64,000 nt of DNA, taken from contig LYOR01000002.1 of the NCBI GenBank assembly GCA_001766825.1, positions 129,924 to 193,923 of the forward strand, given 5' to 3'. This stretch comes from Candidatus Syntropharchaeum butanivorans (GTDB lineage Archaea; Halobacteriota; Syntropharchaeia; Syntropharchaeales; Syntropharchaeaceae). The notes below the pieces were generated by a model. The model saw only the letters and a program-made list of their open reading frames with translations. It searched no databases and was not told where the DNA came from. Positions 46,492 to 50,395 of the stretch are shown in pieces; positions within the stretch are counted from its first letter, which is position 1, and each line of letters starts with the position of its first letter. The position numbers were made by a program, and so were the translations under genes.

Positions 46492-47244
46492 CTAACCAAA
46501 CATCTCAAGAAGTTTATCCTTGATACCCTTGATTGCATCTATCGCCTCTCCTCCTGCATCAAGCGGAGACTTGCCCTCGAGGTCTGCCCTTACAAAGCTC
46601 ACATCATAGGGTATCGACCCAAGGATTGGGACTCCCATCTCTTCTATCTTCTCCCTCACCATATCATCCCCTCCAATGTCCTTGTTGATCACCACGGCGA
46701 CGTTCACAACCCCGATATCAGCCGCAAGCTTCCTGATCCGTGATAGTGTCTCAACGGATCGCATCCCCGGTTCAACAACAACGATCATCAGATCCACGTT
46801 CCTGGTTGTACCTCTCCCGAGATGCTCAATTCCTGCCTCCATATCGAGTATCACAACCCGCTCCTTGAAGATGATGTGTCGAAGAAGCGCCCGTAGAAAC
46901 GCGGATGCAGGACAGACACACCCACTCCCACCAAGTTCGATCGTTCCCATCGTGAGAAGCCTGACCCCATCCTCGTTCTTAACCCCATACTTGTCGAGGA
47001 TGTCATTCACCTTGGGGTTTAGCTTGAATATCCCCCCGGGCTCGCCTGCACGCTCTGCTATGAGATCTTCAAGCTTTGAGATTGGCGTTGGATTCTCCTT
47101 AAGGCCAAGAGCTGATGCGAGATTCATGTCAGGATCTGCATCGATCGCAACAACATCTTCTCCTTCCTGTGCAAGGAGCCTTGCAAGCGTTCCTGCCAGG
47201 GTTGTCTTACCCACTCCCCCTTTTCCGGTTATCGCGATCTTCAT
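46492..47244 (-). CDS. cooC: CooC-type nickel-insertion accessory ATPase
   Basis: GKGGVGKTT, GGSGCVCPASAFLRALL and DMEAGIEHLGRG. Confidence 0.85.
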   Translation of the reverse strand: MKIAITGKGGVGKTTLAGTLARLLAQEGEDVVAIDADPDMNLASALGLKENPTPISKLEDLIAERAGEPGGIFKLNPKVNDILDKYGVKNEDGVRLLTMGTIELGGSGCVCPASAFLRALLRHIIFKERVVILDMEAGIEHLGRGTTRNVDLMIVVVEPGMRSVETLSRIRKLAADIGVVNVAVVINKDIGGDDMVREKIEEMGVPILGSIPYDVSFVRADLEGKSPLDAGGEAIDAIKGIKDKLLEMFG

Positions 47245-47310: not shown

Positions 47311-47670
47311 TCACTTTACGAGAAGGGGGGTTATAACGATCTTTGCCATCATTACCATCGCACCGAGCATGCCGACATGGTGTATGATCCGCGTTGTCTC
47401 ACCTCCACCCATTGTCCCGAGTATCTGGGCGTCGATCGCGACAGATAGACAGATGAACGTCAGCCCTAAGTAGAGGAGCGTGATGTGCCTGGTCTTATCA
47501 TACGCGAGAAAACTTGCACCGACAACGACAATGCAGATTGCAAGCTCAAGCGCACTCGACCACAGCTCCCACATCGATGCTTCATCCTCTGCAGCAGATG
47601 CTACCCCTGCAAGCAGGAGCAACCCTAAAAGCACCATGGCCGGAACAATCTGTTTCCCGATCCTGATCAC
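47311..47670 (-). CDS. Small membrane protein (signal peptide + 3 TM)
   Basis: Hydrophobic profile. It starts 15 nt downstream of the 441-aa gene. Confidence 0.45.
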   Translation of the reverse strand: MIRIGKQIVPAMVLLGLLLLAGVASAAEDEASMWELWSSALELAICIVVVGASFLAYDKTRHITLLYLGLTFICLSVAIDAQILGTMGGGETTRIIHHVGMLGAMVMMAKIVITPLLVK

Positions 47671-47685
47671 CTCCTTTTAATTAGT

Positions 47686-49011
47686 TCAGAAATCAAATGC
47701 ATCCGCGAGCTTATCCTCAAATCTCTTCTTCTTTCCCTTTACCCCCATATTCATAACGACATTCAATGGGAGTGTGATCTTGATGCCATTAGAATCTAAT
47801 TCTTCTGTGATCTCCCTTTCAAGCAGGGCTGCAAGCTCAGCATCGTTCAGATGCTTGAGCTTTGAGAGAAGTCCAAATTCATACCAGACATAGACATTTA
47901 TCGCCTCATTTATCACAACAGATGTGCTCAGGATCTTGATCCGGTTCTTTTTTCCAAAGACCTGTATCTCCCGGCTTATAAGTCCACCGAGCCTCTCATG
48001 ATCATCCTCTTCTGTGTTATCCTGAGATCTTGAGGTCCCCTCCTCAACGCCGGGGGCATCAGAATCCGGCTTATCCATCAGCATGTGGCCTAAACCTTCA
48101 CTCTCAATCACATCTTTGAGCGAGTCGATATCAAGATCCAGCTTCAGATCCTGGAAGACGTCAACGATCTCAGGGGATTCATCCTCCCTCATTTCCTCTA
48201 TTTTGAACCTCTCCCGGTACTCGTGCTTGTTCTCAGATCCTATTGGGGATGCAATTACTAAAATCTCTCCTTCTCCAGGCTTTTCAGGTACAAACTCAAT
48301 TTCCTGGAACTTTCCAACCTCAATCATGCGTATAAATGATTTCTGCTCTTCACCATCGATTGAGATTTTTATGTCAAGGTCGAATATCTCACCATCATCC
48401 TCGCACTCTACCTGGATGAGAAATGAAATAACATCTCCAACAAAGCACCTGGACTCTCCGATATCTATCTTTATCCTGAACTCCTCCTCCGGGGTCTCTT
48501 CCTGCTGGACCTCATCATCTTGGGGGGTATCATCAGAGGCGGCCCTGTCATCGCGATCCCAGTCAAGGAGAAGATATGGCCTGCCTTTTGAGTCTATGGC
48601 AAGTACACCGTCCCCCCACGTATCGATGATTGTACCTTTCCCCTCCTCAAGCTCGGTTATGATACTGATCATATCTTCCATTAGGGTGAAGAGTGAGTCC
48701 TTGTTCCACTTCTTCACGAGTGACATCTCATGTGGCTGGAGTGCGCATATATCAAACCATCCCTTCTTACACCTGAGGAAGTTCTTGCATGCATCCCAGC
48801 CATTTATCGTCGAATCACTGGATTCCTCTGATGATCCAATGATTTTTCCGTTCTCTATGAGGAGGTACTTATCCACAAAACCATCATCTGCGGTGGATAT
48901 CCTCACGTAACCGGTGAAATCATCCATTATCAGGTCATAAATGATTTTTCCAAGGTCGTAATCCTCTATTCTTGCATTTTTCTTTATGAATTCACCAGTT
49001 AAAAGGTCCAA
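47686..49011 (-). CDS. 441-aa acidic protein with PATAN/DUF4388-like N-domain and Ig-like middle domain
   Basis: The N-terminus is IEDYDLGKIIYDLIMDDFTGYVRISTADDG...LLIENGKIIGS...INGWDACKNFL. This fits the pattern of PATAN domains that accompany Roadblock/MglB proteins. The TTG start lies 3 nt after the upstream stop. Confidence 0.5.
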   Translation of the reverse strand: MDLLTGEFIKKNARIEDYDLGKIIYDLIMDDFTGYVRISTADDGFVDKYLLIENGKIIGSSEESSDSTINGWDACKNFLRCKKGWFDICALQPHEMSLVKKWNKDSLFTLMEDMISIITELEEGKGTIIDTWGDGVLAIDSKGRPYLLLDWDRDDRAASDDTPQDDEVQQEETPEEEFRIKIDIGESRCFVGDVISFLIQVECEDDGEIFDLDIKISIDGEEQKSFIRMIEVGKFQEIEFVPEKPGEGEILVIASPIGSENKHEYRERFKIEEMREDESPEIVDVFQDLKLDLDIDSLKDVIESEGLGHMLMDKPDSDAPGVEEGTSRSQDNTEEDDHERLGGLISREIQVFGKKNRIKILSTSVVINEAINVYVWYEFGLLSKLKHLNDAELAALLEREITEELDSNGIKITLPLNVVMNMGVKGKKKRFEDKLADAFDF

Positions 49012-49014
49012 CGC

Positions 49015-49359
49015 TCAGCCCCCCATAAGATAGGATCTAAGCTCAGGTATTGCACCTTTCACAGCCATCCTGACCATTCCAAGATTCACATCTTTATCTG
49101 TCAGCACAGCCACACCCCCTTCCTCCAGTGGAAGGGCTATCATCTTCCTGTTGTCCATCTCAAGCATGACAAACTCACATTTTGAATTGAGCCCATCTGA
49201 TACCTTCTGTGAATAGTTTATGAGATCCTGAGCGTAGGCATACAGCTCCTCTTCATCCAGACTCGTTGACGTGAGTGTATCGATAGGGATTCCATGCAGA
49301 AAGAGCCCGCAGGCGAGAACCCCATCAATCTTTATCAGGTCCTCGAGCCTCTTGATGAT
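49015..49359 (-). CDS. Roadblock/LC7 (MglB-like) domain protein 2, no canonical start codon, not in ORF track
   Basis: Hand translation gives IIKRLEDLIKIDGVLACGLFLHGIPIDTLTSTSLDEEELYAYAQDLINYSQKVSDGLNSKCEFVMLEMDNRKMIALPLEEGGVAVLTDKDVNLGMVRMAVKGAIPELRSYLMGG*. The frame is open 49018-49365. A GAGAGGTGAT SD lies 5 nt before ATC 49359. There is no ATG, GTG or TTG until the middle of the domain. Confidence 0.6.
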   Translation of the reverse strand: MIKRLEDLIKIDGVLACGLFLHGIPIDTLTSTSLDEEELYAYAQDLINYSQKVSDGLNSKCEFVMLEMDNRKMIALPLEEGGVAVLTDKDVNLGMVRMAVKGAIPELRSYLMGG

Positions 49360-49423
49360 ATTTGATCACCTCTCTCAGCTTAAAGTAAGAGAGATGGGTA
49401 CTATCCCACCCCCTCCCATCTTT

Positions 49424-49783
49424 TTAGTGAAGCTCCTTCTGCACAAGTGGTAGTGCTTTCTTCATCTCAAGTCGGGCCTTCCCCAGGTTACCGTTCGCAG
49501 CAAGTGCAATCCCTATCCAGTACTCCTCATCAAGAGGCCTCATGAAGAAGATCGCGGCATCTGCCATCGTCATCGACTCTTTAACCTTCCCGGCACCGGC
49601 ATCCTCCATCATCTTCTTGGCATAGGTGAGACCCATTGCCGCTGAGGCAACCGACTCCTCCATCGGGAAGTTCGGGTCGGTCTGAGCTGTTGCAACCGGC
49701 ATACCGTCAAACCCTGCAACAGCGATTCCTATTGAGCCATCTACATTCTTCAGCACATCATTCAGTATTCGCTCTAAAGCCAT
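49424..49783 (-). CDS. Roadblock/LC7 (MglB-like) domain protein 1
   Basis: MALERILNDVLKNVDGSIGIAVAGFDGMPVA... The ATG at 49783 has a G-rich SD. Confidence 0.7.
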   Translation of the reverse strand: MALERILNDVLKNVDGSIGIAVAGFDGMPVATAQTDPNFPMEESVASAAMGLTYAKKMMEDAGAGKVKESMTMADAAIFFMRPLDEEYWIGIALAANGNLGKARLEMKKALPLVQKELH

Positions 49784-49936: not shown

Positions 49937-50395
49937 TTAGCTCTCATCCTTGTAAGATTTACCCAGTAACCATACCTCCACGTCCCTGATCCCCGGGACC
50001 TCCATGATCAGATCATAAAGACGTCTCAGGTCCTCGTAGCTTCTGAACCTGCACTGGAGGAGGATGCGAAACGTTCCTGTGGTTACATCCCAGATATCAG
50101 ATACAATCTCTTCATCTTTAAGCCTCGTGATCAGGGTGTTGAGAGCATTGGTCGGGCATGCTATCCCTATGAATCCAAAAAACTCATATCCGAGCTTTTT
50201 CCAGTCTATTCTCGGTACATACCTCGATATAACGCCCCTCTCCTCCAGTTTGGTAACCCTCAGGTTGGCTGTGCTCCTCGGAATCCCAAGCTCATTCGCA
50301 AGCTGGGTAAGCCGTGCCCCCACACCCTTTCCCTCAAGCATCTTCTGAAGAACCTGTCTGTCAAGCTCATCGATATTGCCCTTCATCCAACCCAC
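49937..50395 (-). CDS. Lrp/AsnC-family transcriptional regulator
   Basis: HTH segment RLTQLANELGIPRSTANLRVTKLEERGVI, plus a RAM-like C-domain. Confidence 0.8.
   Translation of the reverse strand: MGWMKGNIDELDRQVLQKMLEGKGVGARLTQLANELGIPRSTANLRVTKLEERGVISRYVPRIDWKKLGYEFFGFIGIACPTNALNTLITRLKDEEIVSDIWDVTTGTFRILLQCRFRSYEDLRRLYDLIMEVPGIRDVEVWLLGKSYKDES

Follow-up and report, generated by a model that had tools for sequence, protein, structure and literature searches.

In Myxococcus xanthus, a module of the Ras-like GTPase MglA, the Roadblock-fold proteins MglB and MglC, and RomR controls the placement of the polar type IV pilus motility machinery. MglC works in it as an adaptor that binds MglB, through its FDI surface, and RomR, and it neither binds MglA nor has GTPase-activating protein (GAP) activity (PMC4719450). 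MglC-type proteins (MglB_orphan1) have been described only in genomes with a group-1 MglA (PMC4719450). Genes encoding PATAN domains are found near mglA and mglB, and orphans account for 328 of 749 MglB homologues; as of that 2014 survey no orphan had been characterized (PMC4316618), and MglC has been studied since. Makarova et al. (2006; cited in PMC4316618) had pointed out the association of PATAN with MglB on the basis of genome context. Here, we analyzed a 64,000-nucleotide stretch of contig LYOR01000002.1 (the window, to whose positions all coordinates refer unless another contig is named) from Candidatus Syntropharchaeum butanivorans, a butane-oxidizing archaeon of the genus Ca. Syntrophoarchaeum, and describe a minus-strand cassette of four genes that encode two Roadblock/LC7 proteins (Roadblock-1 and Roadblock-2), a 441-aa acidic multidomain protein, and a 119-aa membrane protein. 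With a probability that we put at roughly 55%, this cassette would be a lineage-specific, relocated version, found in Syntrophoarchaeum, of a Roadblock-PATAN adaptor module that is widespread in archaea and works with the ATPase MinD at a type IV pilus-type machine.

The cassette resembles the M. xanthus module in that it encodes two Roadblock-fold proteins, the first of which aligns end to end with MglC and keeps its GFDG motif. Unlike M. xanthus, its host is an archaeon of a genus without an MglA-type GTPase and without RomR/RomX, and the partner of the Roadblock proteins would be a scaffold made of PATAN, immunoglobulin (Ig)-like and C-terminal domains and, judging by synteny in relatives, a MinD ATPase. 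As with the PATAN (DUF4388)/DUF2226 proteins encoded near MglB homologues, a Roadblock gene is here followed immediately by one that encodes a PATAN-superfamily domain; unlike in those proteins, this N-domain is missed by the Pfam models, and Pfam does not contain the architecture of Ig-like domain, EGLGH motif and C-domain, for which Syntropharchaeia gave the only examples. Among archaea, Roadblock (arCOG02603) and FleN/MinD (arCOG00589) genes are frequent in type IV pilus loci, as recorded in one sentence without PATAN or a mechanism (PMC4858521). Relatives of the cassette show the clustering of PilB3-type ATPase, TadC/T2SSF, MinD and Roadblock genes known from euryarchaeal type IV pilus loci (Haloferax PilB3/PilC3), and the window genome itself has a MinD-PilB3-T2SSF locus; unlike in those loci, the Roadblock/PATAN cassette is detached from the pilus locus in this genus. 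In Haloferax volcanii, MinD2 and MinD4 influence where the machinery for motility and chemotaxis is positioned (PMC11588486). MinD2, which affects motility-machinery positioning, is followed by a small conserved gene (HVO_0596) and has no confirmed interaction partner, and the paper that describes it does not mention Roadblock proteins (PMC11588486). An archaeal MinD gene followed by a small conserved gene is likewise seen near relatives of our cassette, a likeness for which we claim no orthology. Finally, unequal pairs of Roadblock-fold proteins that serve as a membrane-tethered scaffold are known from the eukaryotic Ragulator/LAMTOR complex; unlike the GTPase-free cassette, LAMTOR acts on lysosomes as a scaffold for Rag GTPases, and the likeness is one of fold only.

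Along the minus strand, the cassette runs from Roadblock-1 (49424-49783; 119 aa, ATG start at 49783 with a strong Shine-Dalgarno sequence) through Roadblock-2 (49015-49359; 114 aa if the ATC at 49359 is the start, with the frame open up to 49365) and the 441-aa protein (47686-49011; TTG start, 3 nt past the Roadblock-2 stop) to the membrane protein (47311-47670), which is followed by a gene for a CooC-type ATPase (46492-47244). The four genes of the first-pass annotation, with their order, strand and gaps (64, 3, 15 and 66 nt from Roadblock-1 to CooC), were all reproduced exactly when we re-read the sequence. In our model, the four genes of the cassette would be co-transcribed.

As single sequences, Roadblock-1 scored 23.0 bits on the Pfam model Robl_LC7 (PF03259), which equals the cut-off, and Roadblock-2 scored 21.5 bits, under the cut-off. 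Profiles of the orthologues bore out that both are Roadblock/LC7 proteins. The Roadblock-1 profile (A3) matched the M. xanthus MglC structure 7ct3 over its full length (E 2.3e-16), with residues 1-118 placed on 1-120 and GFDG placed on GFDG, and G24, D26 and G27 are invariant across the Roadblock-1 alignment. The same profile also matched Asgard and bacterial Roadblock/MglB structures and, weakly, LAMTOR3/MP1. The Roadblock-2 profile (A4) matched Roadblock structures including 7yh1 (E 6e-6) and CvnB5, and comparison of A3 with A4 gave 96% by hhalign. The full-length similarity, together with the conserved Asp beside a conserved Gly that corresponds to the FDI surface, indicates that Roadblock-1 in all probability belongs to the MglC subfamily (MglB_orphan1), although the group-1 MglA that co-occurs with this subfamily is missing, the genus having no MglA-like GTPase. 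The two proteins are encoded by the only Roadblock genes of the window genome (G000; 1.46 Mb, 79% complete).

The 441-aa protein has a pI of 4.4, with 102 Asp and Glu residues vs. 52 Lys and Arg residues, and gave no direct sequence match in Pfam, NCBIfam or the PDB. Its N-domain (residues 1 to ~110-125; 48637-49011) had been called PATAN-like, a claim that stands at the level of the superfamily with the direct Pfam models silent: PF14332 and PF09987 (PATAN/DUF4388/DUF2226) matched neither this protein nor six close homologues, even with E-values up to 10. A search of 1.8 billion representatives with the family-alignment profile found ten proteins and no more, and 6 of these 10 have DUF2226 and/or DUF4388 (PATAN) matches exactly where the N-domain aligns (best E 1.5e-18 for DUF2226 and 9e-9 for DUF4388). 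When the N-domain profile (A5) was compared with profile A6, hhalign returned 99.6% and an E-value of 3.8e-24 over 108 columns, a value that is not fully independent since A6 was picked from matches of the query profile. By this transitive support, via profile homology, the N-domain appears to be a member of the PATAN/DUF2226 superfamily. The N-domain profile had no sequence match in the PDB, and Foldseek on the full-length AlphaFold2 (AF2) model returned Ig-like matches only and nothing on the N-domain. A full-text literature search for DUF2226 gave no paper. PatA-type regulators carry a receiver domain; none is attached to the 441-aa protein.

The Ig-like middle segment foreseen in the first-pass annotation, which also noted an acidic linker, is supported by the AF2 model and by Foldseek. 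The Ig-like beta-sandwich (residues 178-272; 48196-48480) was modeled with a predicted local distance difference test score (pLDDT) of 70-84 and matched sandwiches of the MG, FN3, TRAP and arrestin types, with a best E of 1.7e-5; it is flanked by two acidic, disordered linkers, the second of which bears the motif EGLGHM (residues 305-310; 48082-48099). In an alignment of 10 divergent homologues, the E, G, L and H of this motif, which reads EGL[GS]H[LM] across the family, are invariant; the motif is a candidate docking peptide. We also observed that PATAN-repeat proteins of another family (L061 7592-8626; L069-L071) end in ...LL(K/E)(R/K)L(E/D)L[STG]HL followed by a basic tail; these ...L[ED]L[STG]HL ends resemble EGL[GS]H[LM] and may represent a shared docking peptide. 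The C-domain (residues ~331-425; 47737-48021) has an alpha-beta-beta-alpha-beta core that was modeled at a pLDDT of 85-95 in a second AF2 model, of the C-terminal part, and belongs to no known family: it had no Foldseek match in the PDB below E 1e-3 and no PDB sequence match. We rejected the idea that it is a truncated Roadblock domain (hhalign 0.2%), and its best Foldseek matches, to RbfA, OsmC and MamM-CTD folds at E 8e-3, are not significant. As a separate observation, L016 (4407-4880) and L050 (5002-5421) encode a stand-alone, near-identical EGLGHL motif plus C-domain right after the gene for a 662-aa homologue.

Few full-length homologues of the 441-aa protein were found, all of them in Syntropharchaeia. 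Between the window and a 98.9% identical strain (L065, an independent contig from the ENA), the gene differs by 9 synonymous and 9 non-synonymous codon changes, and both Roadblock genes differ by synonymous changes only; the 441-aa scaffold thus appears to evolve fast. The first-pass annotation had suggested that the protein could be a non-GTPase effector. Its place in the module is retained, and it looks like a scaffold or an adaptor instead of an effector.

All four genes occur together in the window, in Ca. Syntrophoarchaeum caldarius, in a third genome of the genus (G001) and in contig L003, and the first three occur together in L004 and in L065, a contig that breaks off within the fourth gene. 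The flanks vary among these loci and consist of TatC genes, RuBisCO-like genes, or an Lrp/AbrB pair. The cassette is kept where its surroundings differ, the opposite of the missing synteny that the first-pass annotation had named as an argument against a module. The membrane-protein gene (GTG start, Shine-Dalgarno sequence AGGAGGTGA) follows the 441-aa gene in three genomes of the genus and in L003; its product has four hydrophobic segments by hydropathy and no family match in Pfam or NCBIfam. We also found the parts of the cassette fused to each other: a Roadblock-2-like domain with EGLSHL and a C-domain (P0011/G013), a Roadblock domain joined, in a 692-aa protein of G296, to a PATAN-like domain and several Ig repeats, and PATAN with Roadblock in proteins of ~230-260 aa from more than 60 genomes in six other families of the phylum. 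These fusions argue that a Roadblock hetero-oligomer binds the scaffold protein.

The evidence for MinD as a partner comes from the relatives. Within Syntropharchaeia, genes related to that of the 441-aa protein lie tail-to-tail with MinD and a gene for a 61-89-aa transmembrane/coiled-coil protein (L004, G349, G164, G247, G296, G013 and G003), and in L004, G164, G296 and G003 a PilB3-type ATPase gene and a T2SSF/TadC gene adjoin the MinD operon. L004 encodes the closest homologue outside the genus, a protein with 59% identity. G073 is a further relative with Roadblock/PATAN genes near MinD (TIGR01969) and its small partner. A genome of another class has a single co-directional operon that encodes a Roadblock protein, a PATAN-Roadblock protein, a protein with two PATAN domains that ends in ...LELTHLL, a 290-aa protein, MinD, and a small protein. 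We then sampled 20 further Roadblock/PATAN-Roadblock loci from six families: a MinD orthologue lies within ~8.5 kb in 18 of them, and PilB plus two TadC genes directly adjoin 10. Since the sampled genomes hold 1-3 such MinD genes each, chance adjacency is ~1-3%. Outside the genus, the association of Roadblock/PATAN with MinD extends to about 10 families.

The window genome encodes the same set of partners at a separate locus (L064; G000:C3:56000-74000), on a different contig from the cassette. Its genes, in order, encode T2SSF and PilB3 (minus strand), two membrane-anchored proteins (167 aa and 233 aa), a protein of 156 aa, MinD, and the transmembrane/coiled-coil partner of MinD (64 aa), and the domains PilB3_N, T2SSE, PilB3_C and T2SSF were all matched. 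The MinD of this contig scores 331 bits on TIGR01969 (minD_arch; cut-off 202); its Walker A motif is deviant, and its C-terminal amphipathic membrane-targeting helix ends in ...RSLFGG. By eye, the 167- and 233-aa proteins upstream of MinD had looked like Roadblock candidates (TIASxDGxLIxSS); they were rejected, with 0.4% by hhalign and no match in the PDB or Pfam. Also encoded near this MinD gene are two KaiC-like ATPases, a PAS protein, and another PilB/T2SSF pair.

In the mechanism that we propose, the two Roadblock proteins would assemble into a heteromeric platform, in the manner of MglC and MglB, and this platform would bind the 441-aa scaffold (PATAN-like domain, acidic linker, Ig-like domain, acidic linker with EGLGH[ML], alpha/beta C-domain), with the small 119-aa membrane protein holding the complex at the membrane. 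The EGLGH peptide or the C-domain would contact MinD, the small partner of MinD, or the pilus motor, and the complex would act as an adaptor or regulator that couples the nucleotide cycle of MinD to the placement or assembly of a pilus-type machine. In the genus, the module would operate without a Ras-like GTPase and would have moved away from the MinD/pilus locus. For this organism, we infer complex formation, membrane anchoring and the MinD/pilus link. The first-pass annotation had suggested a regulatory or positioning module; the neighborhoods in other archaea point in that direction, and what it did not foresee is that the likely nucleotide-dependent partner is the MinD ATPase and the likely target is the PilB3/TadC motor.

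Several points weigh against the MinD/pilus adaptor reading. The proposed function comes from comparative genomics only. The cassette and the MinD/pilus genes are on different contigs in each of the three genomes of the genus, so that the two are not neighbors there and the link for the genus would come by homology and from synteny elsewhere; synteny within the class may in turn partly reflect shared ancestry, not function. The 441-aa protein lacks a direct Pfam match, and the small membrane protein and the C-domain lack informative homologues. Moreover, a small-GTPase operon adjoins the module in two relatives (described below), which makes a GTPase-dependent ancestry likely. Even so, the four competing explanations taken up in the following paragraphs (a scaffold for an unrelated process, a hidden GTPase, a partnership with CooC, and decay) appear less likely to us than an adaptor of MinD and the pilus-type machine. 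A more far-reaching form of that reading, which we put forward tentatively and would rather doubt than believe, is that Roadblock/PATAN complexes in general may be regulators or adaptors of archaeal MinD, forming an ATPase-based polarity switch in which MinD replaces the Ras-like GTPase, docking occurs through E-x-L-[GST]-H-[LM], type IV pilus motors are positioned, and the GTPase branch was lost in Syntrophoarchaeum.

Among the competing explanations, the one that survives best, though we consider it unlikely, is that the cassette encodes a nucleotide-independent membrane scaffold for some other process (envelope-, Tat-export- or syntrophy-related) that is unrelated to MinD and pili in this organism. 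Such a scaffold would fit the separation of the cassette from the MinD/pilus genes in the genus, the genus-specific membrane protein, the lineage-specific Ig-like and C-domains, and the TatC genes that adjoin the cassette in S. caldarius and L003. However, neither the TatC nor the CooC neighbors are conserved, in L004 the genes for MinD, its small partner and PilB3/T2SSF directly adjoin that for the 59% identical homologue, and the association of Roadblock/PATAN with MinD recurs across many families.

It is less probable still that the cassette belongs to a classical MglA/MglB-type switch, with a GTPase encoded in an unassembled part of the genome or too divergent to be recognized, and with the Roadblock proteins as its GAP or guanine nucleotide exchange factor. 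The window genome gave no Ras-family match above the cut-off. As a query we used an Arf-like 165-aa GTPase from L016, encoded beside the homologous gene in a relative; against G000, G001 and G002 (79%, 92% and 95% complete) it returned only FeoB N-domains, IF2/EF translation factors, DRG-type GTPases and a 213-aa HSR1-type GTPase, the last of which is present in every genome examined. The small-GTPase candidates of the window genome were rejected, as all were FeoB N-domains, factors of the IF2/EF type or this universal HSR1-type GTPase. No cognate MglA/Arf-like GTPase, as would be expected for an MglB, was found nearby or in the genome. The absence of a GTPase noted from the window alone therefore extends to the three genomes of the genus, and within the limits of these drafts the genus appears to be without an Arf/MglA-like GTPase. 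Furthermore, 17-kb windows around the 20 Roadblock/PATAN loci of other families contained no GTPase16 small-GTPase homologue, and Roadblock-1 is of the MglC type, which in M. xanthus has neither MglA-binding nor GAP activity. What speaks for a hidden GTPase, besides a window genome that is just 79% complete, is the situation in G349 and G164, where a divergently oriented operon encoding Roadblock, an Arf-like GTPase (165-171 aa) and Roadblock is directly beside the homologous gene, and where the Roadblock gene downstream of that GTPase is the one most similar to Roadblock-1 (E 1e-4 to 1e-10). The lack of a GTPase is not intrinsic to the module. We also observed an N-terminal Arf-like small GTPase domain, at times in tandem copies, in proteins of 392-415 aa from other families of the class (L017-L022; G013, G010, G007, G003, G004 and G011).

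A partnership with the CooC-type ATPase, as the nucleotide-dependent partner of the Roadblock/PATAN proteins, is very improbable, and we rejected it on grounds of synteny and motif. CooC is a SIMIBI-class P-loop ATPase encoded on the same strand, 66 nt downstream of the cassette, and a CooC-like gene is found beside the MinD gene in G247, although that copy is only 34% identical to the window CooC. The gene is at the end of the cassette in the window only and is absent from that position in S. caldarius (L001), L003, G001 and L004. Its product, with the nickel-site motif CxC (GCVCP), scores 66 bits on minD_arch, far below the cut-off of 202, and the genome encodes five CooC paralogues in all, this one included. 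The CooC ATG is preceded by a T-run and no Shine-Dalgarno sequence, which suggests that the gene is on a separate, possibly leaderless transcript. Based on the unconserved position, the CxC motif, the paralogues, the low MinD score and the T-run, we treated CooC as an unrelated neighbor.

The start of Roadblock-2 bears on the last alternative. Its frame (49015-49365) has no ATG, GTG or TTG close to the 5' end, and the gene is for this reason missing from a standard list of open reading frames. The frame opens after a TGA at 49366-49368 and reads GAGAGGTGA-TCA-AAT-ATC-ATC-AAG. The ATC at 49359, a permitted start in translation table 11, is 6 nt past the strong Shine-Dalgarno-like GAGAGGTGA, suggesting that translation begins at this ATC; orthologues in three relatives have a GTG start at the equivalent place. 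The frame is intact and 64-71% identical to the orthologues. L065 has the same start arrangement, and Roadblock-2 differs between the two strains by 2 synonymous and 0 non-synonymous codon changes; the shared start and the solely synonymous changes argue for an intact gene and not an assembly error or obvious decay. We give hardly any credence to the notion that the module is a remnant degenerating after loss of its GTPase, with Roadblock-2 a pseudogene, for which the missing ATG/GTG/TTG is the one point in favor and against which stand the intact frame, the Shine-Dalgarno-like sequence before a permitted start, the identical arrangement in an independent sample, the next gene beginning 3 nt past the stop, and the intactness of all other genes.

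Two further features concern the expression of the cassette. A scan for terminator-like structures found a GC-rich hairpin with a T-rich tail (49390-49413, minus strand) between the two Roadblock genes, and a GC stem with TTTTATTTT occurs at the equivalent position in G001, G002 and L003; the hairpin may be an attenuator or a terminator, and as an attenuator it would raise the level of Roadblock-1. Directly upstream of the cassette is a gene for an Lrp/AsnC regulator (49937-50395, minus strand; Pfam AsnC_trans_reg and HTH_24), also found upstream in L003, G001 and L065 and not in S. caldarius. It is a neighbor kept in close relatives only and is possibly a local regulator of the cassette. As a side observation, L003 (2726-3175) and G001 (L054, between 9874 and 10352) have an extra 149-aa gene (Pfam RdxA_C) between Roadblock-1 and Roadblock-2.

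New in this locus are the Syntropharchaeia-specific scaffold architecture (PATAN-like domain, Ig-like domain, EGLGH motif and new C-domain), an archaeal MglC-type Roadblock protein in a genus without any MglA, the non-canonical start of Roadblock-2, and a cassette that is physically apart from its MinD/pilus partners. Where studied, archaeal MinD ATPases (H. volcanii MinD2) have no confirmed partner, and the locus with its relatives gives a set of candidate partners: a Roadblock protein like MglC, another Roadblock protein, a PATAN scaffold with its conserved motif, MinD and PilB3. The Syntrophoarchaeum cassette offers a natural GTPase-free example of such a set. If the proposal is true, it would widen the role of Roadblock proteins from the regulation of GTPases to that of MinD/ParA-type ATPases, and it would reveal how pilus-type machines are placed or controlled in archaea, including the syntrophic alkane oxidizers that live in consortia with partner bacteria.

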